Shown piece after piece: positions 11,075 to 48,308 of a stretch of 64,000 bases of DNA. The DNA comes from Candidatus Gastranaerophilaceae bacterium (GTDB lineage: Bacteria; Cyanobacteriota; Vampirovibrionia; Gastranaerophilales; Gastranaerophilaceae), in NCBI GenBank assembly GCA_041678605.1, contig JBAYNW010000001.1, forward strand, positions 13,947 to 77,946, given 5' to 3'. The position numbers and the translations under genes are program-made. Within the stretch, counting starts at the first letter, position 1. The number at the start of each line of letters is the position of its first letter. Under the pieces are notes generated by a model. The model was not told where the DNA came from. It did no database searches and worked only from the letters and a program-made list of their open reading frames with translations.

Positions 11075-12850
11075 ATGATTAAAACAAAGTACAAAACAAG
11101 CAATTGCGGGGTATTAAACCTCAATAACTTAAACGAAGAATTTACGCTTTCGGGCTGGGCATCCTGCATCAGAGATTTGGGCGGAATTATTTTTGTGGAA
11201 TTAAGAGACAGAAGCGGCTTTTTTCAATTGGTTTCAGATCCGCAGGTTAACCCGCAGGTTCACAAAACTTTTGAAAAATTAAAAACAGAATTTGTTGTTA
11301 CGGTCAGGGGCAAAATCACCCGACGTCCCGAAGAAACTTACAACGAAAAACACGCCACCGGTCAGGTCGAAATGTATCCCGAGTTTATTGAAATCCTTTC
11401 CGAGGCTAAGGTTTTACCATTCGCACTTGAAGATGATAATGTATCGGAAGATATAAGGTTAAAATACCGTTATCTTGATATAAGACGCGAAAAGACTTTG
11501 AACAACCTGATTTTGCGTCATAAAATTGTTACCGCTGCGAGAAATTACTTGAACAAACAGGACTTTTTAGAGGTGGAAACACCGATTTTAATCAATACGA
11601 CACCTGAAGGGGCAAGAGATTATTTGGTTCCTTCAAGGGTTCAGGAGGGCAAATTTTATGCACTTCCGCAGTCACCTCAAATTTTCAAACAACTGCTGAT
11701 GGTGGGAGGAATCGAAAAATACTACCAAATCGCAAAATGCTTTAGGGATGAGGATTTGAGAGCTGACAGGCAGCCTGAATTCACTCAAATCGATCTGGAA
11801 ATGTCTTTTGTCGAACAGCAGGATGTAATCGAGCTTGTCGAAGGGCTTTTGGTTGATACTTTTAAGGAAGCAGGTGTTGAGATTAAGCCTCCGTTTATCC
11901 AAATGACTTACAAAGAGGCAATGGAGCGTTTTGGCTCGGACAAGCCCGACACACGTTTTGGACTGGAACTTTTTGACGTAACCGACATTATGCAAGCCTC
12001 GACTTTTGAGGCGTTCAAAGGCGTAATCGCCAACGGCGGGACAGTTAGAGCGATTAAAATTCCCGGAATTGCAAATTACTCAAGAAAAGATATGGACGAC
12101 GTAAGAAATTTAGCGATTTCTTTCGGTGCAAAAGGGCTTGCGTGGGTGACTTATATGGAAACAGGCGAAGTAAAATCACCTGTATTCAAGTTCTTAACGG
12201 AAGAGCAGATTGCCGAATTGCAGACACGCTCAGGTGCCGTCAAAGGCGATATCGTTTTCTTTGTGGCAGACAAACCGAACGTAGTTTTTGATGTTCTGGG
12301 AAGATTTAGGTTACATTTTGGTAAAAAGCTTGAAATGATTGACGAGAGTAGGCACAATTTACTCTGGATTGTTGATTTTCCTATGTTTGAATACTCTGAA
12401 GAAGAGCAAAGATATATGGCGAAACACCATCCGTTCACGTCACCTAATTTGGAAGATATTGACAAAATGGAAACAGACCCTGCAAACTGCCGTTCAATCG
12501 CCTATGATATAATTTACAACGGGGCAGAGCTGGGTGGCGGAAGCGTCAGAATTCACTCAAGCGAAGTACAGGAACGTGTATTTAAGGCGTTAGGATTTTC
12601 ACAGGAGGAAGTCCAAAAGAAATTCGGATTTATGGTAAATGCTTTCAAATACGGAACACCTCCTCATGCCGGTCTGGCAATCGGCTTGGACAGGCTTGTG
12701 GCACTTCTGGCAAGAACAGAGTCCATTCGTGACGTGATTGCGTTCCCTAAAAATTCAAGTGCCAAGTGTCTTATGACAGACGCACCCGCGGAAGCTTCCT
12801 TGCTTCAGATGAGAGAATTGCACCTGAAAAGCACTGTGACAAAACGTTGA
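11075..12850 (+). CDS. aspS: aspartate--tRNA ligase
   Basis: Motifs GWASCIRDLGG.IFVELRDRSG, FRDEDLRADRQPEFTQIDLEMSF, GGGSVRIH and GLAIGLDRLV. Confidence 0.95.
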   Translation: MIKTKYKTSNCGVLNLNNLNEEFTLSGWASCIRDLGGIIFVELRDRSGFFQLVSDPQVNPQVHKTFEKLKTEFVVTVRGKITRRPEETYNEKHATGQVEMYPEFIEILSEAKVLPFALEDDNVSEDIRLKYRYLDIRREKTLNNLILRHKIVTAARNYLNKQDFLEVETPILINTTPEGARDYLVPSRVQEGKFYALPQSPQIFKQLLMVGGIEKYYQIAKCFRDEDLRADRQPEFTQIDLEMSFVEQQDVIELVEGLLVDTFKEAGVEIKPPFIQMTYKEAMERFGSDKPDTRFGLELFDVTDIMQASTFEAFKGVIANGGTVRAIKIPGIANYSRKDMDDVRNLAISFGAKGLAWVTYMETGEVKSPVFKFLTEEQIAELQTRSGAVKGDIVFFVADKPNVVFDVLGRFRLHFGKKLEMIDESRHNLLWIVDFPMFEYSEEEQRYMAKHHPFTSPNLEDIDKMETDPANCRSIAYDIIYNGAELGGGSVRIHSSEVQERVFKALGFSQEEVQKKFGFMVNAFKYGTPPHAGLAIGLDRLVALLARTESIRDVIAFPKNSSAKCLMTDAPAEASLLQMRELHLKSTVTKR

Positions 12851-19748: not shown

Positions 19749-19896
19749 AAGGTCGAAAGGCTTTTTACGAAGTGATTAAGTGACTGGGTGATTAAGTGAC
19801 TAAGTGCAACAAAAAAAATTAAAACTTTTCTTTTCCCGTTTCTCTTCTCACGTCTCACCTCTCACGTTTCCCCCTTTCCTTTTCCCGTTTCTTTCA
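19721..19896. repeat. composite heptanucleotide repeat array, reverse orientation
   Basis: GGTTGAA units, GGCTTTTTACGAAGTGATTAAGTGACTGGGTGATTAAGTGACTAAGTGCAAC, AAAAAAAATTAAAAC, CCCGTTTC and CTCACGT units. Confidence 0.9.
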
Positions 19897-26550: not shown

Positions 26551-28023
26551 ATGAGATTAGAAGAATTAATAGAAAAATTAAAATATGAACAACTGATAAA
26601 CTTTGAAGATGTCGAGATTACGGGGATTTCTTACAACTCAAAAACGACAAAATCGGGTGACATTTTTGTCTGCCTTGTCGGAGAACATTCAGACGGCCAC
26701 GAGTATTTTAAAAGTGCTGTGGAAAACGGTGCGAGAGCATTTTTAGTTGAAAAAAAACTGGACTGCCATCTTCCTCAGGTCGTTGTAAAGTCGACACGAC
26801 GCCAGATTGCCGATATAGCCGACAAATTTTACAATTCACCTTCAAAATCTCTTAATTTAATAGGAATTACTGGGACAAACGGAAAAACGACCGTTACGCA
26901 TTTAGTTCAGAAAATTTTAGAATCAAAGGGGAATGGTGAAAAATGTGCCTTAATAGGAACCTTGGGATATAAACTTTCATCAACGGACGGATACAAAGAG
27001 GCCAAGCACACAACGCCTCAGGCACCGGAACTTCAAGCCACGCTTGACCTGATTTGCAAAGCCGGAATTAAAAATGTTGTGATGGAGGTCAGCTCGCACG
27101 CACTTGAGCAAAACAGGGTCGGCGGCTGTGTTTACAACGGGGCGGTTTTGACCAATTTAACTCAGGACCACCTTGATTACCACGTCACTATGGACAACTA
27201 TTTTGAAGCAAAAGCAATTCTTTTTAAAAGCTTAAAAGCCGGTGATTTTGCCGTGATTAATGCAGATGATGAATATGCGAAAAGATTTTTGGACATAATC
27301 CCGCAGGGAGTGAAGGTTATTACTTACGGAATAAAGAATTCCGCAGATATTATGGCAAAAAACGTTGAGTTTTCGCTGAGTGGTGCAGAATTCACTCTCT
27401 TCTCAGACGAATTCGGCTCGACAGAGGTCAAACTGCACATGAATGGGATGTTCAGTGTTTACAACGTGCTTGCGGCACTTGCGGTCGGGCTTACACACGG
27501 TATAAATCTTAATCTATGCGTTAAGGCTTTGGAAAGCACAAGGGGCGTAGCCGGAAGATTTGAAGTTGTGTCCGAAAATCCGCTTGTAATCGTTGATTAT
27601 GCACATACGCCGGACGGGCTTAAAAATGTTTTGACAGCAGCGAGAGAAATTACGCCAAAAGCTTCCAAACTTATTTGTCTTTTCGGGTGCGGGGGCGACA
27701 GAGATACAACAAAACGCCCTCAAATGGGTGCAATAGCTGAAAGGCTCTCGGACAAAATTGTAATAACATCAGACAACCCGAGAAGCGAAGAGCCGCAGCA
27801 AATTATAACGGATGTTTTGGCGGGGCTGAAATCAATCAACACCCGGACTGTTTTTGTCGAGATAGACAGGAGAAAAGCCATCAAGCTTTTAAAAAATATT
27901 TGTGACAAAAACGATGTAGTGGTAATTGCGGGCAAGGGACATGAAGATTATCAGATTTTGAAGGACAGAACAATTCATTTTGACGACAGAGAAGAGGCCA
28001 AAAAAGTTTTTTTGGGGGGCTAA
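26551..28023 (+). CDS. murE: UDP-N-acetylmuramoyl-L-alanyl-D-glutamate--2,6-diaminopimelate ligase
   Basis: GITGTNGKTT, the DNPR motif typical of mDAP-adding MurE, and GKGHE. Confidence 0.9.
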   Translation: MRLEELIEKLKYEQLINFEDVEITGISYNSKTTKSGDIFVCLVGEHSDGHEYFKSAVENGARAFLVEKKLDCHLPQVVVKSTRRQIADIADKFYNSPSKSLNLIGITGTNGKTTVTHLVQKILESKGNGEKCALIGTLGYKLSSTDGYKEAKHTTPQAPELQATLDLICKAGIKNVVMEVSSHALEQNRVGGCVYNGAVLTNLTQDHLDYHVTMDNYFEAKAILFKSLKAGDFAVINADDEYAKRFLDIIPQGVKVITYGIKNSADIMAKNVEFSLSGAEFTLFSDEFGSTEVKLHMNGMFSVYNVLAALAVGLTHGINLNLCVKALESTRGVAGRFEVVSENPLVIVDYAHTPDGLKNVLTAAREITPKASKLICLFGCGGDRDTTKRPQMGAIAERLSDKIVITSDNPRSEEPQQIITDVLAGLKSINTRTVFVEIDRRKAIKLLKNICDKNDVVVIAGKGHEDYQILKDRTIHFDDREEAKKVFLGG

Positions 28024-28028
28024 AAGTC

Positions 28029-28808
28029 CTAAATAATATGTGAAAATGACAGGAAGTATTCGCTGATTACAGTCACAAGCATCGGCAAAATCCATACCAT
28101 AATTGCCGCACCTAACACCGGTTTAAAGAGGAAGCTCAATTGAAAAACGTTTACCTGCGGTGCGGTTTTGGAGATTATGCCGAGGATTATGTCCTGACCG
28201 AGTGTCGCCAGAAGCACCGGTGCGGCAATTTGCAGACCCATGTACAAAACGTTTGAAGTCATTTGAATTAGATATTCCATATTTACAATTTTTGCTAAGG
28301 GGATACTTGTCGCATAAATCGGAAAGATTTCAAAACTTCTCATAAATGCCTGAAAAAGCCAGTAAACGCCTCCGAGTTGAATAAATATCAAAATGGCAAA
28401 AACAGAAAAATATTTTTCCAAAATGGAAATTTGGCTCTGGGTGGTGGGGTCAAGCACCATTGCGGAAGATAACCCCATTTGCATATTTATCATATCCGCT
28501 CCGGCATCTATGGCAGAGAGTATTAATCTCGCCATATAACCAATCATAGCCCCAACAGCTACGTTCAAAACTATTGATAATATAAGTGAATTATTCACAG
28601 GCGGAACCGGAGGATGAAGAACGCCGGTCAAAGTAATTGTAAGAAGAAAAACGAACCCGATTTTCGCAAGCGACGGAATTTCTTTTCTGCTGAAAACAGG
28701 TGCCAGCAGCACAAATCCCAACATTCTTGCAAACACGATAATGCCCGCACCAAGTGCGGCATCAAAAGCCGGAAAAAGTTTTGCAATTTGTGTTATAAAA
28801 ACATCCAT
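28029..28808 (-). CDS. fliR: flagellar biosynthetic protein FliR
   Basis: 259-aa polytopic protein in fliP-fliQ-fliR order, with a FliR-like hydrophobic profile. Confidence 0.75.
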   Translation of the reverse strand: MDVFITQIAKLFPAFDAALGAGIIVFARMLGFVLLAPVFSRKEIPSLAKIGFVFLLTITLTGVLHPPVPPVNNSLILSIVLNVAVGAMIGYMARLILSAIDAGADMINMQMGLSSAMVLDPTTQSQISILEKYFSVFAILIFIQLGGVYWLFQAFMRSFEIFPIYATSIPLAKIVNMEYLIQMTSNVLYMGLQIAAPVLLATLGQDIILGIISKTAPQVNVFQLSFLFKPVLGAAIMVWILPMLVTVISEYFLSFSHII

Positions 28809-28831
28809 TTGTTATGTAAATCCTTTTAATA

Positions 28832-29282
28832 AGTGATTAAGTGACTAGGTGACTAAGTGATTAAGTGCAATTAAGTTTTTTTATCTAAATATTTTTTTAA
28901 TCCTGATGTTAAAGCACTAATTTTACCTAATTCATTCAGCAATACATCTAAATTATCTAAATATCCTAAATTTTTTGAAATAATCAATTGAGTTTCAAGT
29001 TCGGCAATTGACCCTAACGCAATATCTAGAAATCTTGAAGTTTCTCTAGCCGAGTATCTGGCACAACCCTCTGCAATATTTGAAGGAATAGAGATAACGC
29101 ATCTCCTAATTTGATTTGTTAAACTAAACATTTCATATTTAGGAAATTTATTTGTAATTAAATAAATTTTTGTTACGAAATTAATTGATTCTTTCCAAGC
29201 TTCTAAATCTTTATGATGCATCCTTATTTATATCCTTCTTTTTGTTGCACTTAGTCACTTAATCACCTAGTCACTTAGTTAC
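28832..29282. mobile_element. cassette: four-helix-bundle gene bounded by ~40-bp imperfect terminal inverted repeats of the CACTTAATCAC module
   Basis: Left AAGTGATTAAGTGACTAGGTGACTAAGTGATTAAGTGCAA (28832-28871). Right TTGCACTTAGTCACTTAATCACCTAGTCACTTAGTTACTT (29243-29282). About 36/40 complementary. Confidence 0.4.
28871..29221 (-). CDS. four-helix-bundle protein (23S rRNA intervening-sequence protein / Avd-like family)
   Basis: Motifs DLEAWKES, FPK.E.FSLTNQIRR...SIPSNIAEG and GS..ELETQL. Confidence 0.85.
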   Translation of the reverse strand: MHHKDLEAWKESINFVTKIYLITNKFPKYEMFSLTNQIRRCVISIPSNIAEGCARYSARETSRFLDIALGSIAELETQLIISKNLGYLDNLDVLLNELGKISALTSGLKKYLDKKT

Positions 29283-29287
29283 TTTTA

Positions 29288-29779
29288 TTACCTTCCCATT
29301 ATTTTTTTAGTTTCAACAAGATTAGGTTTTGGCATTTGTGTTTTTGGTGCGGGGGTATATTTCATGCCTTCCTCGGTTTGTTTCGAGAAATCAAACCTTT
29401 GAGAACCTTTCATTAGGTCTTTAAGATTAGCTTTATCCTTGATTTTATCCTTCATTTCCCCCTGAAAAGGACGGGTATACTTATAATATTCAGTCGGCAG
29501 GGCATAACTGTCGCTCTTTGGAACAACATCAAACGCCATCAAAAATCCTTCGTTCATCAAATTCGTGAGCAGTCGTACGTATCCGTAACCGCCTATTATA
29601 ATAACCAAAAATACGGCTAAAATTTTCGGAGCAGCCGCAATCGTTTGCTCCTGAACCTGAGTTACCGCCTGCAAAACCCCGATTACAAGTCCTACCAGTG
29701 CTGCTACCAGTACACAGGGCATGGATATCAGCAGCATAACCACAAAACCTCTTGCCATATATTCTACTAATAGTTCCAT
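29288..29779 (-). CDS. fliQ: flagellar biosynthetic protein FliQ with ~75-aa C-terminal extension
   Basis: The first ~88 aa match the FliQ pattern (LQAVTQVQEQTIAAAPKI). The rest is a Lys-rich tail. Confidence 0.8.
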   Translation of the reverse strand: MELLVEYMARGFVVMLLISMPCVLVAALVGLVIGVLQAVTQVQEQTIAAAPKILAVFLVIIIGGYGYVRLLTNLMNEGFLMAFDVVPKSDSYALPTEYYKYTRPFQGEMKDKIKDKANLKDLMKGSQRFDFSKQTEEGMKYTPAPKTQMPKPNLVETKKIMGR

Positions 29780-29876
29780 GTTTTATTTCCTTCTTTTTCT
29801 GTTTTTGTTTTGGATGAAATCCTGAACAAGTTCAGGAGGACACATTTATAAGGCTCGTTTTTCGCCAAGAGCTGCG

Positions 29877-30518
29877 TCAATTGTAGCTGCTAACAAGTCC
29901 TTGTACTATCAACGCCCAACCATCGACCGCAATAAAGATTAGGAGTTTGAACGGCAGTGAAATAATCGTCGGTGATAACATAAACATCCCCAACGCAAGC
30001 AGGATGTTTGCAACCACCAAATCCAGCACGATAAACGGAACGAAAATTATAAAACCGATTTCAAAAGAAGTTTTTAATTCGCTCGTGATAAATGCCGGTG
30101 CAACCTGCCAAATGGTTATTTCTTCCGGTGATTTTGGCGGATTTTTTTGCGAAAGCGACACGAAGAACTCCAAATCCTGCTGCCGCGTCTGTTTCATCAT
30201 GAATTCTTTTAAAGGTTTTGAACCCTCTTCAATTGCAAGCACAATATTCCCCGTTTTGTTGTACGGAACTTGCCCCATGTCATACATTTTTTGAAAGACA
30301 GGACCCATTGTGTAGAAAGTTAAAATCATCGACAAACCTATAATTACTATTGCCGGCGGAACCTGCTGCGTGCCGAGTGCGGTTTTTAGCATTGAAAACA
30401 CTATGACAAATCTCAAAAAGCTTGTCATGCAGCTAAAAACGAATGGCAAAAGTGAAAATACACTCATTACCACCAACATTTGTATGACCGGATTCATATC
30501 CTTTAAAACAGATTCCAT
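29877..30518 (-). CDS. fliP: flagellar biosynthetic protein FliP
   Basis: MTSFLRFVIVFSMLKTALGTQQVPP and GLSMILTFYTMGPV motifs. Confidence 0.85.
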   Translation of the reverse strand: MESVLKDMNPVIQMLVVMSVFSLLPFVFSCMTSFLRFVIVFSMLKTALGTQQVPPAIVIIGLSMILTFYTMGPVFQKMYDMGQVPYNKTGNIVLAIEEGSKPLKEFMMKQTRQQDLEFFVSLSQKNPPKSPEEITIWQVAPAFITSELKTSFEIGFIIFVPFIVLDLVVANILLALGMFMLSPTIISLPFKLLIFIAVDGWALIVQGLVSSYN

Positions 30519-30531
30519 ATTTATTCCTCTT

Positions 30532-30948
30532 TTATATTACACTTAGCTTCTTTGCCAACTCTCTCATCATCGGTCCCTTTTTTGAACGTTCTTTTTCAAA
30601 ATCTATTATCGAGGCAAATTCCCCCAGACTTTCTATCCCGTCAAAACTACTCAGTTCTGAACTTTTATCTTCTCTAAGAGGCTTCGATTCTTTTTCGAAA
30701 TCCTTGCCCAGCCTTGCAATTAAAGCAGTTCTGTCAATATCGGCGGCGATTAAAAATCTTTCATTCTCCGCATTTATCACATAGAGTGTCTTTCTAGGAG
30801 ACAGGCTCATTGACTCCTCTATATTTAACATCCCTGATTTTTTGGAAAAACATTTGTTAGAAAATGTTTTGAACACAAAAAGTGCAAGAAAAATTACACC
30901 TATCATTGCAAGTGTGTATACTAAAAAACTAACTAAGTATCCTGTCAT
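30532..30948 (-). CDS. FliO/FliZ-like single-pass flagellar export protein
   Basis: One N-terminal TM helix. Assignment rests on position immediately upstream of fliP, so it is positional only. Confidence 0.45.
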   Translation of the reverse strand: MTGYLVSFLVYTLAMIGVIFLALFVFKTFSNKCFSKKSGMLNIEESMSLSPRKTLYVINAENERFLIAADIDRTALIARLGKDFEKESKPLREDKSSELSSFDGIESLGEFASIIDFEKERSKKGPMMRELAKKLSVI

Positions 30949-30984
30949 TTTGCCTCCCCGTTATTTTTACTGTTTACCGTTTCC

Positions 30985-32157
30985 TCAAATGTCCTGATCA
31001 TCAAGCTCGAAATCGCTGTAATCGAACTCTTCATCCGCTTTGCTGTTGCTTTCGCTCTCTTGAGGTTCTTGCTGTTGTGCTTCGGTTTCTTCTCCGGAAT
31101 TTTCGGTCTGCACCTGAGTTATTTGTTCCGCCTGATTTTTTTCAGAGGCAAAAACCTCATCCACCCTCACTCCGTAGCGGTCGTTAACAATTACCAGTTC
31201 GCCTTTTGCGATGGTTTTGTTTTCCACTTTTAGAAAAATTTTGTTGTTATAAACCGAACTTATATCCACGACAAGACCCTGTTCAATATTTTTCAGTTCT
31301 CCGAGAGTTATTTTTACTTTTTCAAACTCTGCACCCATCTCGACCTGAATATTGTCCCATAAGTCTTTAGATAAAGCATTTTCTTCCATGTTATGTCCTC
31401 CGTTGTTGTTGGCTGATGTTATTAGACCCGGATTGGGGCTGACCTTAAAATCTTGTTCGTAATCTTCATAAATGAGCTTCATTGAGTGAATGTCACTGTT
31501 TTCGAAAACAACTATGTCCTCTTTTTCCAAATTTTTTAATTCTTTTAGCAAGAATTTTGTAGTCCCGACTTTTATGTTCACCGGCAATTTGCTTGTTTTG
31601 AAATCCGAAACATCAAATTTTTCACTCTCCACTTTGACGGCCTCGGGGGATAGTAAAACCTGCGGCAGAGAAACTATTAATTTTGCTCCGTTATCCGATT
31701 CTTTTTCTTTGATAAAGAAGGTTAAATGAATTGTGTCCATGTTCTTTCTTTTTGGGGACTTAGGGACAGACGAAGTCAAAAACTTTGAGATACTGTTATA
31801 CAAATAATCGTTGAATGAGCTTATTATCTTTGCTTCCAGCTCAGTTACATTCGTCAAATTAAATTTTTCATTTTTGCCCAAAATTTTGTCCAGAATAATT
31901 TTGACTGCATTTTCCGAACACCTTAAGAAAACTTCATGCTGCTTATCTACACGGATTTTGGTTACAAAATAATCGTCGCCTTGAAACAAAACATTCATAT
32001 TTTTGCTCACGGATATTAACTTGAAAGAAGAAAGCCCCGAGAAAAAATCGTCGCCTGCCGTTTGTATTGACGGCAAAAAAGTTTGGTAAAACCAGTTGTA
32101 CTGGTCGTACAGCTCATCTTTTAAAATTATTTTTGCTTCAGTTTTAACTTCACTCAA
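30985..32157 (-). CDS. flagellar motor switch protein of the FliM/FliN (SpoA domain) family with acidic C-terminal tail
   Basis: C-terminal SpoA-like segment LGELKNIEQGLVVDI......IFLKVENKTIAKGELVIVNDRYGVRVDEV. TTG start. No LSQEEID CheY-binding motif seen. Confidence 0.6.
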   Translation of the reverse strand: MSEVKTEAKIILKDELYDQYNWFYQTFLPSIQTAGDDFFSGLSSFKLISVSKNMNVLFQGDDYFVTKIRVDKQHEVFLRCSENAVKIILDKILGKNEKFNLTNVTELEAKIISSFNDYLYNSISKFLTSSVPKSPKRKNMDTIHLTFFIKEKESDNGAKLIVSLPQVLLSPEAVKVESEKFDVSDFKTSKLPVNIKVGTTKFLLKELKNLEKEDIVVFENSDIHSMKLIYEDYEQDFKVSPNPGLITSANNNGGHNMEENALSKDLWDNIQVEMGAEFEKVKITLGELKNIEQGLVVDISSVYNNKIFLKVENKTIAKGELVIVNDRYGVRVDEVFASEKNQAEQITQVQTENSGEETEAQQQEPQESESNSKADEEFDYSDFELDDQDI

Positions 32158-32263
32158 ATTCTATCCCCGTCCCAAATTAAAGCTCAATCCCCAATGATAG
32201 AATAAGGCTTACAAGCAGATATCACATCAACTATTTGCTGTATTTATGGTTGTTTAAATTGAC

Positions 32264-32348
32264 GAAGGAAGAGGAAACGGTGAGACGTGAGAGGGAAGAC
32301 GTGAGAAGAGAAACGAGAAGCTTTGAGGTTCAGAAGGTTAGAGGTTTA
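32264..32348. repeat. short heptamer array (GTGAGAC/GAAACG/GGTT units)
   Basis: GAAACGGTGAGACGTGAGAGGGAAGACGTGAGAAGAGAAACGAG ... GAGGTTCAGAAGGTTAGAGGTTTAG. Confidence 0.75.
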
Positions 32349-32379
32349 GTAATATAAACCAAACTTCCCGTTTCCCCCG

Positions 32380-33141
32380 TCAATAACTCATCTGCCAGCC
32401 TTCGTCGATGATTCTGCCGATACAATAGGAACCGGATTTATTTGTTCCGCCGTTATATCCGTCGTTACAAAGCTTGTTGGATTTCCAGTAGGTAAGTTTA
32501 GCCCCGCCAACGGGATATAATGCAGGGCCATTATCATTGACAATCCTAAAGTAAAATATATCGCGACCAAAAGCATTTGGTTTTTTGAGCCCGTTTACAT
32601 CAATATAAACACTTGCCATACATACTTTTGTCAGAGAATCAGCTGAACCGCTGCAACCTAAATATGGGGTTTTGCCAAGAAAAACCGACATACCATCCGC
32701 TGTTATAAACCTGTAATAAGATGTCCAATCATATCCACTTGAAGTGTTAGTGCCATCAAAATTTAGTGCTATTGTATTTGAAAAACAGCCTGAGGTTGTC
32801 GTATCACAATTCTTTGCCACATTAAAATAAGCAGCTATCTTATCGCCCATAGTTTTTGCATCGGCCGAATCAAAGAAGCAGCTTAAATCACCTATGCATC
32901 CTGAATCTGCGGCCATCTGGATTAATGCCTGATTCCACAAGGAGTAAGCTTTTCTCACGCCTGCGACGTATCCTACTTTTTGGGATTCGGCAATCAGTCC
33001 CGGAATCATAAGCCCTGCGACCACGCCGATAATGCCGATTGTGACTAAAACTTCGGCGAGAGTGAAGGCGAGTGAGCGAAAGAAAACTCCCTGCTGTTGG
33101 GCTTGCCAGCCCAACCTACTTTGTTTTTTATCGGATTTCAT
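32380..33141 (-). CDS. prepilin-type N-terminal cleavage/methylation domain protein (pilin/pseudopilin-like)
   Basis: FTLAEVLVTIGIIGVVAGL class III signal region. C-terminal IDVNG.KKPN..GRDIF motif shared with ORF 57501-58193. Confidence 0.7.
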   Translation of the reverse strand: MKSDKKQSRLGWQAQQQGVFFRSLAFTLAEVLVTIGIIGVVAGLMIPGLIAESQKVGYVAGVRKAYSLWNQALIQMAADSGCIGDLSCFFDSADAKTMGDKIAAYFNVAKNCDTTTSGCFSNTIALNFDGTNTSSGYDWTSYYRFITADGMSVFLGKTPYLGCSGSADSLTKVCMASVYIDVNGLKKPNAFGRDIFYFRIVNDNGPALYPVGGAKLTYWKSNKLCNDGYNGGTNKSGSYCIGRIIDEGWQMSY

Positions 33142-42157: not shown

Positions 42158-43396
42158 CTAGTTCTTTTCTTCCTCAATCATTTTAGCCAAAACCATTTTC
42201 GCTTTGCGAAGTTGGACATCATTTCTGTTAAATATATCTTTTTCAGTCAATTTCACTTCAATGTCGGGAGCTATACCCTTTTTATTAATATCATGCCCCG
42301 CAGGAGTCAAATATTTTGCGATTGTTAAATTCAATCCTGTTTCATTGGGCATTGGGATAATTTTTTGAACCATTCCTTTTCCAAACGTTTTTGTCCCGAT
42401 TAATGTCGCCTTGTGATAATCTTTCAAAGCCCCCGATAATATTTCACTCGCACTTGCAGATGCCCCGTCAACCAGTACCAGCATAGGTTTATCTACAACA
42501 TATTCGGTTTCTTGTGCGTAAATGTCTTTCTTGTAACCGTTTCTGCCGACTATACTGACCAGAGTTCCTTTGTTGATGAACATGTTCGCTATGAAAACAG
42601 CATTGGGTAACAATCCGCCGGTATTTCCTCTTAAATCTATTATAAGCCCCTTTGTGTTGTTTGTTTTTTCAAGTGCGTCTATAAATTCACTTGAAGTCGT
42701 ATTCCCGATAAAGCTTAAAACCTGTATATATCCTATGTTTTTGTCAATAGAGCTTTTTACGGTTTTAATTTTTATTTCCTTTCGTATTATTTTTTTTGTT
42801 ATTAATCCCTTTTTTCTTAAAACGGTAATTTTTACAACAGTATTTTCCGGCCCTCTCACCAAATCCGCAACTTCGGAAGCTTTCATTCCCGAAATTTCTT
42901 TTCCGTTGACTTTCAGAATTATATCCCCGCTTTTAAGCCCCGCAAAAAATGCCGGAGTGGACTCAATTACACTCACAACATAAGTTTTTCCGCCCAAAGA
43001 AGATATATTAACCCCGATGCCCGTGATTTTTGAATCTATCGAAGTGTTTTGCTCCGCATAATTTTTTTTATCCAAATATCTGGAGTACGGGTCGTCCAAG
43101 CTTTCCAGCATAGTACCTATCGCAACGTTAGCATCGTCATCATTCTTTATTTTGCCGCGATAATGGCTCTCCCACCTGCTCCAGTCTTGCCCGTTCAAAG
43201 AGGAATCATAAAAATTCTTTTTAACGATTTTCCAGGTTCTGTTGAATAAAGTTTGAGAATTTACATGCTCTTTATTGACTAATTCCTGAGTGTTCGTAAT
43301 AGTTGAATTTGTGACAAAATCCCCCATCAGAATTTTATTGAAAATAAAAAGTGCCAGTACTAATAAAATAAATATAATAAATTGTTTTTTCTTCAT
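42158..43396 (-). CDS. ctpA: carboxyl-terminal processing peptidase (S41 family)
   Basis: PDZ segment GIGVNISSLGG.....GLKSGDIILKVNG. Motifs DLRGNTGGLL and LVDGASASASEILSGALKD...ATLIGTKTFGKG. Confidence 0.85.
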   Translation of the reverse strand: MKKKQFIIFILLVLALFIFNKILMGDFVTNSTITNTQELVNKEHVNSQTLFNRTWKIVKKNFYDSSLNGQDWSRWESHYRGKIKNDDDANVAIGTMLESLDDPYSRYLDKKNYAEQNTSIDSKITGIGVNISSLGGKTYVVSVIESTPAFFAGLKSGDIILKVNGKEISGMKASEVADLVRGPENTVVKITVLRKKGLITKKIIRKEIKIKTVKSSIDKNIGYIQVLSFIGNTTSSEFIDALEKTNNTKGLIIDLRGNTGGLLPNAVFIANMFINKGTLVSIVGRNGYKKDIYAQETEYVVDKPMLVLVDGASASASEILSGALKDYHKATLIGTKTFGKGMVQKIIPMPNETGLNLTIAKYLTPAGHDINKKGIAPDIEVKLTEKDIFNRNDVQLRKAKMVLAKMIEEEKN

Positions 43397-43464
43397 TTTT
43401 AACTCTTCTCTCAATAACATTTAATACCAACATTTGTTTTTTTTCAATAGCCTTATAGAGAATA

Positions 43465-43708
43465 GTGAAGGAGAAGGGGGGAAAGTGAGACGTGAGAGGT
43501 GAGACGGGAAACGGAAATTGGTAATTGGTAATTGGGAATTGGGAATTGGTAATTGAACCGTTCGACCCTTCAACTTATCGACTCATCGACTTATCGACTT
43601 ATCAACTTATCAACTAGAAAACGGGAAAAGAAAAGTTTTAATTTTTTTGTTGCACTTAGTCACTTAATCACCCAGTCACTTAATCACTTCGTAAAAAGCC
43701 TTTCAGCC
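43465..43708. repeat. composite heptanucleotide repeat array, forward orientation
   Basis: GTGAGAC, GAAACGG, GGTAATT/GGGAATT, TTCGACC and CTTATCGA runs, then GTTGCACTTAGTCACTTAATCACCCAGTCACTTAATCACTTCGTAAAAAGCC. Confidence 0.9.
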
Positions 43709-44872
43709 TCATTTATACACTTCAACGTATTTTGGATTAACGGCCAGCCATTTGAAAGATTGCGGCGATGTGTCGGGGATATCAATAACGAAAGTTCCGC
43801 CGTATCGGCCTCTTACAAATCTCAAATAACCTTCATTTGCAAGATTGTTCAAAGCCTTTCGGATAGTATTCGGGCTTAAGTCGAGTTCTTTTGACAATTC
43901 CATGATGGAAGGCAATTTTGAACCGATTTCATAATTCTGTGCAATCAAGGCCTTAATATGATTTTGGGTTTTTTCGTAGTTGTAAAATGCTGTTTCCTGA
44001 GCCGAGGCAAAAATTGATGTTTCTTTTTTAGGGGAAAGAATATTTTCACCGGGCATCTTTATAACAGTTGTGCCGTACCGGCCCCTGCGTGCGAGTAAAA
44101 TTCCCTTTTTAATTAAAGATTTAAGTGCATCATGAATTGTTTTTATGCTTACTTTTAATTCGGCGGACAACCGCTCGTGAGCAGGTAATTTGTCACCTAC
44201 GTTCAATTTTTTTGTAATATATTTTTCCAAGTCTTTTTCAACTTTTTCAACCAGAGTAACGTTATCTGAAATATCCAATTTTGTCCTCGGCATTGAAAAA
44301 TTATCCGACGCAAGAATCCATCTGGCTTCGTTTGACATCTTAAATTTGTGTTCAAGAATTCTCATGGAGCACAAAGCCTCCAAAGCAAGCCTTGTGGTGT
44401 TTGGAGAAATCCCTATTGAAGTTGCCAAAACCCTTGAAGAAGGGAGTTTTTGGCCTATCTTTATTTTTTTGTCAATAATATATTTTTTGATTAAATCAAC
44501 GCAAATATCTCTTTTGGAAGTCAATTTTCTGAGGGTGGAAGTGGATTTTTTCCAATTTCTTACCATGGTGCCGATACACTGCTTTGATTCTACATGCCCC
44601 TTGTCCTCAACATATCTGAATGCGTTTTGCATTGTTCCGATACTCACACCCAAATGATATGCCAAATCTGCCTTTTGAGGCAGCAGGTCGGTTTCTTTTA
44701 TTTTCCCCGCCTTAAAATCGGCTTCAATCCAATCAATCAGCCAATTTGCGACCACCATGGCCTTTGATTCAAAAATATTTTTTAAATCAGGAAACGGGAC
44801 AGAAACATCTTTAACACTGAGTTTTCTGAGATTATTTTTATCCAATAACAAGAATTCATCTGTTTTTTTCAC
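43709..44872 (-). CDS. protein with four tandem GntR-type winged-helix HTH domains
   Basis: Four repeats of the pattern (G/D)xKLPSxxxL(A/S)xxLxVSxxTxxxALxxLxxxGxL: LPQKADLAYHLGVSIGTMQNAF, LPSSRVLATSIGISPNTTRLAL, LPAHERLSAELKVSIKTIHDAL, LPSIMELSKELDLSPNTIRKAL. Confidence 0.7.
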   Translation of the reverse strand: MKKTDEFLLLDKNNLRKLSVKDVSVPFPDLKNIFESKAMVVANWLIDWIEADFKAGKIKETDLLPQKADLAYHLGVSIGTMQNAFRYVEDKGHVESKQCIGTMVRNWKKSTSTLRKLTSKRDICVDLIKKYIIDKKIKIGQKLPSSRVLATSIGISPNTTRLALEALCSMRILEHKFKMSNEARWILASDNFSMPRTKLDISDNVTLVEKVEKDLEKYITKKLNVGDKLPAHERLSAELKVSIKTIHDALKSLIKKGILLARRGRYGTTVIKMPGENILSPKKETSIFASAQETAFYNYEKTQNHIKALIAQNYEIGSKLPSIMELSKELDLSPNTIRKALNNLANEGYLRFVRGRYGGTFVIDIPDTSPQSFKWLAVNPKYVEVYK

Positions 44873-44991
44873 GATTAGCCTCCACGCTTCAAACTAATTA
44901 TACAGTTAATATAAAAAAACAAGCAACTTTTTTTTGCTAGCAAACGCCAAAACCTTTACAAATCTTAAGGTTGGCAGAACATAGAATAAGT

Positions 44992-45233
44992 TTATGAGTC
45001 GATGAGTCGAAAGGTTAATTTTTCAGTGTCGTTGCGAGGAGAAACAGTGAGACGTGAGAGGTGAGACGTGAGAAGAGAAACGGGAAACGGGAAAGGAAAT
45101 TGGGAATTGGGAATTGGTAATTGAGAACAGAACCCTTCGACCATTCAACTCTTCGACCTTTCAACCCTTCAGCCTTTAAGCCCTTAAGCCCTTCGACTTA
45201 TCAACCCTTCAACTTATCGGCTTAATCACTTCG
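44992..45233. repeat. composite heptanucleotide repeat array, forward orientation
   Basis: Same module order as 12855-13084. Its 3' end supplies the stop codon of ORF 45226-45687. Confidence 0.9.
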
Positions 45234-46432: not shown

Positions 46433-46842
46433 GTTGGTTGGCTTTTTGCGAAGTGATTAAGGGAGTTGATAAGTCGAAAAGGCTTAAGGGCTTAAAGGGT
46501 GAAGGGTTGAAGGGTTGAAGGGTCGAATAGCTTTTTACGAAGTGATTAAGTGACTGGGTGATTAAGTGATTAAGTTCAATAATGCTTCGCAAATTTTTAA
46601 AAAACAGGGAACGGGGGCAGGGAAGGGAATTTCTTGTCGTTGCGAGGAGAAACAAAGTTTCGACGAAGCAATCCAAAAAATTGCCTCATTATTCCTGAAA
46701 AGCTTTTTACGAAGTGATTAAGTGACTGTGACCGGGTTGAACGGTCGAACGGTTCAATTACCAATTCCCAATTACCAATTCCCAATTTCCTTTCCCGTTT
46801 CCCGTTTCTCTTCTCACGTCTCACTTCCCTCCTGTCCCCTTT
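46433..46842. repeat. composite repeat block, reverse orientation, with a near-identical copy of the 38862-39087 unit
   Basis: 46529-46728 matches 38862-39087 with about 4 differences. Flanked by GGTTGAA, CCAATT and CCCGTTT heptamer runs. Confidence 0.9.
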
Positions 46843-46869
46843 TTCGGCTAACTGTTATATAATAATTAA

Positions 46870-47175
46870 ATGCAGAATTCAGAATTTATTAAAAGCAGGC
46901 CGCAGAGGCTTTGTAAGATGTGCGGGAAATGCCCAGAGGGTTATCCGCTTTCCATTTGGGATAAAATGCCTGAAGGTTGCGGATTTGAAGGTTGGCTTTT
47001 TCAAAAAAAAGAAGAAATAAAACAAAAAATCCGCAAACAAAAAGAACTTTTGTTGTCGCTTGAGGTTATGGTAAAAACAGTAACTCCCGAGCAGGCTGAA
47101 AAATTAAGCGAAAGCATAAAAAAAATTAAAAAAACAATAGAAAGTTATGCAAAATACGGCTCCGAAAATTGGTAG
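46870..47175 (+). CDS. hypothetical small protein with CxxCxxC motif and coiled-coil tail
   Basis: 101 aa; CKMCGKCPEG....GCGFEGW, then a Lys/Glu-rich helix. Confidence 0.45.
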   Translation: MQNSEFIKSRPQRLCKMCGKCPEGYPLSIWDKMPEGCGFEGWLFQKKEEIKQKIRKQKELLLSLEVMVKTVTPEQAEKLSESIKKIKKTIESYAKYGSENW

Positions 47176-47181
47176 AAAGAC

Positions 47182-47580
47182 AAGGGCTTAAAAAGTGAGA
47201 CGTGAGATGTGAGACGTGAGAAGAGAAACGGGAAACGAGAAAGGAAATTGGGAATTGGTAATTGGAAACAGAACCTTTCGACCATTCAATTTAGTGACTT
47301 AAATTCAGATCCCGCATCAGAATGAATAACAAAAGTCAACCGCCATACCCTAAGCAGTGCGGGATGACAATAAAGTGAAAAGGTAATTGGAAATTGGCAA
47401 TTGGGAATTGGTAATTGAACCGTTCGACCCTTCGACCCTTCGACTTATCAACTAGAAGACGGGAAACGGAAAGTTTTAATTTTTTTGTTGCACTTAATCA
47501 CTTAATCACCCAGTCACTTAATCACTTCGTAAAAAGCCCTTCGACCTTTCAACCCTTCACCCCTTAAGCCCTTAAGCCCT
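47182..47580. repeat. double composite heptanucleotide array (two forward units separated by a TCCCGCA/TGCGGGA palindromic unit)
   Basis: Unit 1 at 47182-47300; palindromic unit at 47309-47366; unit 2 at 47380-47580, ending at the stop codon of the NarL-type regulator. Confidence 0.9.
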
Positions 47581-48308
47581 TATACCAATCCCTCGCGGAC
47601 TGCCTTAACTGCCGCCTGTACTCTGTCATTTACGCACATTTTTTGCAAAATCGAGCAAACGTGAGCTTTCGCTGTGTGAACGCTTACAATTAATTCTTTT
47701 GCAATTTCCGTATTGCTTTTTCCCATGACAAGATGTTTTAAAACTTCACATTCTCTTTCTGTCAGAGGAACTCGGCCGGTGGCCCCCGTTTTTGACGGCA
47801 AAAGACTTGTGTTTTCAGGTTTAGGGAAAGCGTTTAATGCTATCTGTGCTACTTGCGGGTCAATCCAGCAAACACCATTTGCAACATCTCTAACCACGTC
47901 GGCAAGTTTCACCGGATCAATGTCCTTAAGGCAATATCCGTGGGCTCCTGACGCAAGTGCCGCTATAACTTCCTCTTCCCTGTCGTGAGAAGTAAGTGCT
48001 ATGATTTTTGTTTCGGGCAGTATTTCTTTTACCTTAATTGTTGCTTCTATTCCATTCATCTCCGGAAGTCCCAAATCCATCAAAACTACATCGGGTTTAA
48101 ATTTGGCTATAAGTTCCAGCCCTGCTGCAGCATTGTCACACTCGGCAATAACATTTATATCTTTGTTCGAATTTAACGCACACCGCAATCCCACTCTTGT
48201 TAATTTAAAATCTTCAACAATTATAACGTTTAATGCTTTTATTTTTGTACTGTCATTTTCGGCAGGCTTATGTTTGTGCTTCGATGAAGCAGTTTTTGTT
48301 TCGCTCAT
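47580..48308 (-). CDS. NarL/FixJ-family response regulator (LuxR-type HTH)
   Basis: Receiver VIIVEDFKLTRVGL...DLGLPEMNG. HTH LTERECEVLKHLVMGKSNTEIAKELIVSVHTAKAHV. No histidine kinase is adjacent. Confidence 0.85.
   Translation of the reverse strand: MSETKTASSKHKHKPAENDSTKIKALNVIIVEDFKLTRVGLRCALNSNKDINVIAECDNAAAGLELIAKFKPDVVLMDLGLPEMNGIEATIKVKEILPETKIIALTSHDREEEVIAALASGAHGYCLKDIDPVKLADVVRDVANGVCWIDPQVAQIALNAFPKPENTSLLPSKTGATGRVPLTERECEVLKHLVMGKSNTEIAKELIVSVHTAKAHVCSILQKMCVNDRVQAAVKAVREGLV

Follow-up and report, generated by a model that had tools for sequence, protein, structure and literature searches.

An octamer-armed four-helix-bundle gene cassette at the fliQ/fliR junction of a Gastranaerophilaceae bacterium, probably of the intervening-sequence type

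A gene of the PF05635 family lies between fliQ and fliR in the flagellar export operon of a Candidatus Gastranaerophilaceae bacterium, a gut-type relative of cyanobacteria that is uncultured, and is enclosed by two inverted arrays of octamers. The locus belongs to a window of 64,000 nucleotides (the whole stretch of DNA that was analyzed) from a genome of 1.77 Mb in 58 contigs with 37.6% GC, hereafter G000, which represents a flagellated lineage. The best explanation, and in our judgment the probable one, is a cassette of the intervening sequence (IVS) type that is co-transcribed with its operon and whose ~40-bp stem around the open reading frame (ORF) serves as a processing or structural site. 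According to this explanation, the PF05635 gene and its two inverted five-octamer arrays would have been inserted secondarily, as a unit, at the fliQ/fliR cistron junction, and the cassette would most likely be transcribed within the fliOPQR message. The arms are predicted to pair in the RNA, forming a stem of ~40 bp whose loop would contain the ORF together with its ribosome-binding site, while fliR would keep a separate ribosome-binding site located outside this stem. By analogy with known intervening sequences, such a stem may act as an RNase III site or a structural site separating the fliPQ portion of the message from the fliR portion (the genome has an RNase III gene at C22:25362-25739). 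Gene and arms would pass to descendants as one unit and would occasionally change site together, and the cassette may be selfish or mobile in nature.

The surrounding operon lies entirely on the minus strand (28029-32157) and comprises a fliN-type gene, fliO, fliP, fliQ, and fliR, all confirmed by Pfam (Table 1). The placement of a four-helix-bundle gene between fliR and fliQ, first proposed in the sequence-only reading, was confirmed by the PF05635 assignment and by the Pfam identification of its neighbors. The Bac_export_3 domain of FliQ covers residues 5-75 only and is followed by a C-terminal extension of ~85 amino acids, which is a feature of the lineage rather than an annotation error because the extension can be aligned along its entire length in most relatives across the order. 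No sigma-70-like promoter was detected upstream of the ORF inside the cassette, no terminator-like T tract was found at the cassette, and promoter-like or terminator-like matches across positions 27900-32400 were not in excess over shuffled sequences. Since neither a consensus promoter nor an intrinsic terminator was found in the cassette, which is in sense orientation within the operon, co-transcription appears to be the simplest reading.

Table 1. Features of the fliQ-fliR cassette and of the flagellar export operon, in window coordinates.
Feature	Position	Strand	Basis
Whole cassette, 454 nt (5' arm, leader, ORF, 3' arm)	28831..29284	minus	arms and ORF positions
5' arm (gene sense), five octamers AAGTAACT AAGTGACT AGGTGATT AAGTGACT AAGTGCAA	29245..29284	minus	inverted match, TRF
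23-nt leader within the loop, Shine-Dalgarno-like GAAGGA 11 nt before ATG	29222..29244	minus	read from sequence
116-aa four-helix-bundle ORF	28871..29221	minus	PF05635, 2gsc match, model
3' arm (gene sense) TTGCACTT AATCACTT AGTCACCT AGTCACTT AATCACTT	28831..28870	minus	inverted match, TRF
22-nt spacer with AAAGGA ribosome-binding site for fliR, outside the predicted stem	28809..28830	minus	read from sequence
fliR, 259 aa, intact, 81% identical to closest relatives	28029..28808	minus	PF01311
fliQ, 163 aa	29288..29779	minus	PF01313
fliP	29877..30518	minus	Pfam
fliO, upstream of fliP	30532-30948	minus	Pfam
fliN-type gene, upstream of fliP	30985-32157	minus	Pfam

The 116-aa protein is a member of the PF05635 / S23p / Xcc0516 family and has the four-helix-bundle fold. 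It matches the PF05635 23S_rRNA_IVP profile with an E value of 2.6e-34 (118.1 bits against a cut-off of 33.8) and covers positions 1-104 of the 106 in the profile, and its sequence also matches Xcc0516 (PDB 2gsc; E 8.6e-24). The AlphaFold model shows four helices with a mean pLDDT of 96.5 and superposes on 2gsc with a TM score of 0.92 and an rmsd of 0.8 at 43% identity, followed by BT_0352 (2rld). Both Xcc0516 and BT_0352 are stand-alone four-helix-bundle proteins, and they have the fold and the motif in common with the protein described here. The ORF is intact and contains the QxxRxxxSxxxNxxEG motif; R40, S44, N48, E51, and G52 are invariant among nine melainabacterial copies and correspond to the R-x3-S-x3-N-x2-E motif described for four-helix-bundle proteins of the 'S23 ribosomal protein family' (PMC3936711).

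The arms are 40 nt each, 374 nt apart, and complementary at 36/40 positions (90%), which confirms the previously noted ~40-nt inverted copies with about 36/40 complementarity at 28832-28871 and 29243-29282, with coordinates shifted by only 1-2 nt. The arms had been regarded as heptamer arrays, a description that has to be revised because their tandem period is 8: the array consensus is TAAGTGAC / CACTTAGT, with five AAGTGAYT octamers per arm, and TRF reports 4.6 copies of period 8 at 29248-29284 and 4.8 copies of period 8 at 28830-28867. The 5' arm begins 3 nt past the fliQ stop codon and has the module plus the GCAACAAAAA tail in common with the genome-wide mosaic repeat, and the 3' arm abuts the TAA stop codon of the ORF. 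An odd unit variant (AGG...) occupies a mirrored position in the two arms, which points to mirrored copying and not to two independent arrays. The inverted local alignment of the flanks scored 61, above the mean of 16.9 and the maximum of 28 in 300 shuffles of both flanks and above the maximum of 38 in cross-locus controls. RNA folding of the minus strand over positions 28815-29300 predicts that the two arms pair into a ~40-bp stem enclosing the ORF, with a dG of -111 kcal/mol and a z score of -5.7.

Judged from sequence comparison, the cassette is a secondary insert at the fliQ/fliR junction. An empty site in relatives, which the sequence-only reading had proposed to look for in the fliR-fliQ spacing, was indeed found: the gap is bimodal in 29 relatives and measures only 1-54 nt in 11 of them. 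Removal of 28831-29284 from G000 leaves a fliQ-fliR spacer of 25 nt, inside this empty-site range. G023 is the only one of the 29 relatives with a PF05635 gene at this site, encoding a protein 59% identical to that of G000 between arms of GTGAAGR units, while 17/29 relatives, G011 included, carry an unrelated small signal-peptide ORF in the gap (L008, L009, L010, L013-L016, L021-L023, L027, L028, and L030-L034). Conversely, sites occupied in relatives have compact counterparts in G000, with 22 nt between groES and groEL and 85 nt between rimP and nusA. Filled and empty sites were seen only between genera.

Some additional observations concern these junctions. The signal-peptide ORFs between fliQ and fliR are 112-202 aa long and some match PF13629 T2SS-T3SS_pil_N (E 9e-7 to 1e-5); the four-helix-bundle cassette takes the place of this pil_N-type ORF in G000 and G023, and elsewhere in G000 only a distant match to it was observed (C17:7569-7763). 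The rimP-nusA spacer of G000 (C10:~30667-30753) harbors two short gene-less arrays, one of AGATGTA type and one of CATACCTC type, which are not mutually complementary, and G003 has a full cassette at the same junction.

The PF05635 family is associated with inverted arrays of 7-8-nt units, both within the lineage and across phyla. Three stand-alone copies occur in G000 (on C1, which is the fliQ-fliR copy, on C8, and a broken one on C25), together with an additional weak Avd-like copy inside a diversity-generating retroelement (DGR) on C15, and seven good copies were found in five of 40 relatives. The gene is patchy, being present in 10/41 genomes, and the expectation of a highly multiplied family does not apply to G000, with its three stand-alone copies and one Avd-like DGR copy. 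All ten stand-alone copies lie between inverted tandem arrays of 7-8-nt units and all ten are co-oriented with the flanking housekeeping genes, the gene pairs identified being gyrB-adk, pepA-gpmI, groES-groEL, rimP-nusA, and secA-ychF. The units differ by locus (AAGTGAYT, AAATAGN, GGAAATA, GTGAAGR, GTGAGTA, GGTTATAA/GGGTGAAT, GTTGAARG, GATGCGTA, and AGCTAAGA). The proposed check for the same inverted module around each paralogue showed inverted arrays at every copy, with a locus-specific unit, and the idea of the CACTTAATCAC module as a terminus common to the paralogues was not supported, given that the three G000 copies (protein identity of at most 56%) have three different arm units. That an ordinary small gene came to lie among intergenic repeats or terminators by chance, conceivable in a genome as rich in short tandem arrays as G000, is extremely unlikely: this is contradicted by same-unit inverted arrays at 3/3 copies in G000 and 7/7 in relatives and by the flank score of 61 against a shuffle maximum of 28, and no terminator-like T tract accompanies the arms.

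The two other stand-alone copies of G000 have features of their own. The broken copy in pepA-gpmI (C25:24029-24401) has been split into two fragments by an internal deletion and a frameshift and retains 33-nt inverted arms of GGAAATA type that are 94% complementary; it may be a decaying cassette becoming a gene-less hairpin. The C8 copy has arms of AAATAGN arrays, and an inverted copy of its 5' arm, perfect over 28 nt, lies at a distance of 2.5 kb, beyond gyrB (C8:9286-9313 and 11800-11827), so that a housekeeping gene is likewise bracketed by the C8 array.

For the comparison across phyla, 80 loci from many phyla were taken, of which 75 were testable, and the 150 nt upstream of each gene were compared with the 150 nt downstream. 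Scores of the best inverted flank match had a median of 29, compared to 15 for the cross-locus controls, and exceeded 32 (approximately the 99th percentile of the controls) at 29/75 loci and the control maximum of 38 at 18/75. The arms were mostly of period 7, strict arrays were present in 44/150 flanks compared to 2/149 control windows, and 59 of 73 loci were co-oriented with both neighbors.

Several lines of evidence favor a cassette lineage composed of protein and unit that now and then changes site. The closest protein relative of the fliQ-fliR copy is the groES-groEL copy of G015, a member of another genus, which has nearly identical AAGTGAYT arms; between the two, the arms are ~86% identical and the ORFs 70%. 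In a tree of 86 proteins the G000 copy was sister to this G015 copy with support of 97/89, and not to the same-site copy of G023; in a smaller tree the support was 84/78, and an AU test did not reject a clade with the same-site copy of G023 (p 0.23). Arm 10-mers were common to 7/50 pairs with at least 60% protein identity in different genomic contexts, against 54/3359 more distant pairs (a rough Fisher p of 2e-5, the pairs being non-independent). Moreover, orthologous cassettes of Flavobacteriales and Acidobacteriota kept their unit (TTAGATTN and AGTACCN, respectively) at protein identities of ~62-74%.

The notion of a small non-autonomous mobile cassette is therefore supported in one part: empty junctions, the patchy distribution, and the same-arm relative elsewhere in G015 indicate that gene and arms were inserted as one unit. 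The other part found no counterpart in the data, as neither a transposase (HUH or other) nor an identical second copy was found for the fliQ-fliR cassette and the search for a target-site duplication gave nothing convincing, so that the words 'mobile' and 'non-autonomous' should be taken as inference. An AT-rich TAAAAG is present on both sides and overlaps the first unit, and similar flanks in G015 resemble a context of stop codon plus ribosome-binding site.

The cassette arms are also part of a larger repeat population. Together with its inner boundary GTGCAACAAAAA, the AAGTGAYT module is a regular component of a genome-wide mosaic repeat, and the cassette arm is a copy of this module. Pattern hits numbered 108 in G000, 17 in G015, 10 in G023, 7 in G001, and 3 in G012, with none in the 36 other relatives and none in any genome for the reversed-pattern control. 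A regular-expression search identified 124 module loci in G000, of which 58 have five units and 31 have four. Only four convergent pairs less than 700 nt apart exist among them, one being the fliQ-fliR cassette and the other three enclosing non-coding loops of 220-238 nt; the remaining loci are solo. Consequently, and considering that arrays are also abundant in the gene-less genome G012, the proposed role of the module as a general cassette terminus could not be upheld. The dominant module variant, AAGTGACTGGGTGATTAAGTG, differs from the cassette arms, and further module loci occur in the window at 19770, 38874, 39047, 43653, 46540, and 47491. The module probably breaks the assembly, since several contigs begin or finish in it. 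The window also contains a 101-aa ORF (46870-47175) bracketed, at 46478-47582, by nested inverted arrays of several units, with AAGGGTTG and AAGTGATT as outer arrays and CAATTAC/TTTCCCG vs GAGAAAC/AATTGGG as inner ones.

These observations bear on an alternative in which the arms are host repeats and the gene entered a hairpin already formed by the mosaic arrays of the lineage, or was captured by it, while the arrays would spread independently. The solo state of most module loci, with only four convergent pairs within 700 nt, and the three gene-less hairpins with the same arms agree with this alternative, as do the occurrence of the module in five genomes (G000, G015, G023, G001, and G012), two of them without a PF05635 gene, and the fact that all cassette arm units of the subclade come from a shared subclade repertoire. 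Besides, AATAG-type arrays (66 hits) and GTGAAGR arrays (11 hits) both peak in G012, a sister genus whose genome is 92% complete and lacks any PF05635 gene; an array is even found there directly 3' of the fliQ stop codon. The abundance of such arrays in a gene-less genome indicates that they are independent of the gene and persist and multiply without it. However, the copies of G003 and G031, genomes in which none of the three array types (AAGTGAYT, AATAG, and GTGAAGR) was found, still have their own inverted arrays, as does the copy of G017, a genome with just 3 GTGAAGR hits; relatedness of the arms follows that of the proteins even across sites; the association with arrays holds in many phyla; and the AGG... 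variant is mirrored in both arms. Overall, we regard the capture of the gene by host repeats as unlikely.

In a further alternative, the arms would not primarily form a stem but would be paired arrays of putative sites to which the encoded protein binds. By analogy with Xcc0516, this protein would be a pentamer (the closest solved structure, 2gsc, is a pentamer of four-helix bundles according to its title as cited in PMC3936711), and it would regulate itself or target its own cassette and the ~120 gene-less modules. Five units per arm, and the preference of genomic modules for five units (58/124) and then four (31), suit this possibility. Arm units are also conserved beyond the need for pairing (~86% vs 70% for the ORF between G000 and G015) and in the orthologous Flavobacteriales and Acidobacteriota cassettes, and transversions, which disrupt pairing, account for many of the mismatches between arms. 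Still, G012 is rich in arrays of these units although it has no PF05635 gene, and GTGAGAC and AATTGGG, the most abundant array families of G000, have no cognate gene. We regard the binding-site reading as improbable. Amplification of the arrays driven by a cognate gene was considered and rejected: it fits the AAGTGAYT counts (108 in G000 and 17 in G015) and fails for AATAG and GTGAAGR. The thriving arrays of the gene-less sister genus thus set a limit on claims that the protein drives the spread of the repeats. In its broadest form, PF05635 proteins and inverted 7-8-nt arrays would make up one system that colonizes transcribed junctions (rRNA helices and cistron boundaries), with the protein, a pentamer by analogy, reading its own unit; we give this view a small chance, and if it were true, part of the mosaic resembling cyanobacterial STRR repeats would consist of gene-less derivatives or extra binding sites.

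The IVS-type explanation, which we prefer, places the function of the arms in the transcript. Arm mismatches at 51 loci showed no G-U bias on the sense strand (35 sense vs 50 antisense, with 111 transversions), and the fliQ-fliR cassette itself has 1 sense vs 3 antisense mismatches. Duplex energies of the arms were not consistently better for the sense strand either, and neither arm mismatches nor duplex energies gave a sign of selection specifically on the sense RNA.

The structural resemblance of the protein to the Avd accessory proteins of DGRs raises another alternative, namely that the gene encodes such an accessory protein. A more distant fold match exists to DGR Avd (TM 0.79 to 4dwl), the bAvd profile matches weakly, with an E value of 1.9e-4 that falls short of the cut-off, and C15 contains a DGR-type reverse transcriptase. 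Nevertheless, the neighbors of the gene are fliQ and fliR, with no adjoining reverse transcriptase or template repeat, and the C15 DGR comes with an Avd-like ORF of its own, which lies immediately upstream of the reverse transcriptase and has no flanking arrays. An identity as DGR Avd is therefore very improbable and can be ruled out by the neighboring genes. The C15 element (C15:~42800-45100) includes the Avd-like ORF with one in-frame stop, repeated ...ARCVR... segments resembling template and variable repeats, and a reverse transcriptase (RVT_1, E 4.7e-17) that has one stop and is the sole DGR-type one found.

For thirty years, the 23S rRNA IVS with its S23p ORF has been an unexplained curiosity, and the STRR-type heptanucleotide repeats, which occur in cyanobacteria and other bacteria, likewise lack an explanation. 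The fliQ-fliR locus presents the IVS design within an mRNA operon of the ordinary kind, and its lineage permits a comparison of filled with empty sites. It allows three questions to be tested: whether RNase III cuts the stem and so uncouples the genes of the operon, whether the protein binds the repeat, and whether gene and arms move together.

Among known systems, the Avd proteins of DGRs (4dwl, 8ube) share the four-helix-bundle fold and are distant members of the same superfamily, but the fliQ-fliR gene lacks an adjoining reverse transcriptase and template or variable repeats, and the Avd-like ORF of C15 lacks arrays. REP/BIME elements with RAYT and MITEs resemble the cassette in being hairpin-forming intergenic repeats at operon junctions and in having terminal inverted repeats; they differ from it in that neither a transposase nor a convincing target-site duplication was identified for the cassette, and in that the arms vary between gene-bearing cassettes instead of forming many identical copies. 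The STRR heptanucleotide repeats of cyanobacteria and the GGGNATC heptamers of Xanthomonas and Nostoc (Rehm et al. 2015, PMC4692102) are also short tandem arrays of 7-8-nt units, each array having 4-5 copies; they are found preferentially between co-oriented ORFs and are transcribed, as the cassette presumably is. However, they have been described without an enclosed gene and read as G-quadruplex formers (PMC4692102), whereas the fliQ-fliR arrays are inverted, enclose a gene, and have a unit that is not rich in G tracts.

The closest known counterpart is the 23S rRNA IVS, of which ORF-bearing examples have been reported in Leptospira and Coxiella (Warrier et al. 2016, PMC4990558; Ralph & McClelland 1993, as cited there). 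The IVS of Coxiella burnetii contains an S23p ORF, a 28-bp stem, and tandem GACAGAT heptamers, and is cut by RNase III midway along the stem (Warrier et al. 2016, PMC4990558). In both cases a PF05635-family protein is encoded in the loop and terminal inverted repeats form a long stem, of 28 bp in Coxiella and a predicted ~40 bp at fliQ-fliR, and repeats occur in the region of the 5' arm, GACAGAT heptamers in the former and AAGTGAYT octamers in the latter. Both also run in the direction of a host transcript and depend on it, the cassette presumably so, and both have a patchy, horizontal-looking distribution. In contrast, the cassette is located at an mRNA operon junction rather than in a 23S rRNA helix, RNase III cleavage is demonstrated for the IVS and would apply to fliQ-fliR by analogy, and the cassette arms belong to a repeat family with 124 loci in its own genome. 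Full-text literature searches that combined the protein family with heptamer or inverted repeats turned up no description of operon-located cassettes, the nearest report being the Coxiella IVS paper. While the 23S IVS kind is already known, its operon-located, octamer-armed form, with an arm that belongs to a 124-copy genomic repeat family, is new.
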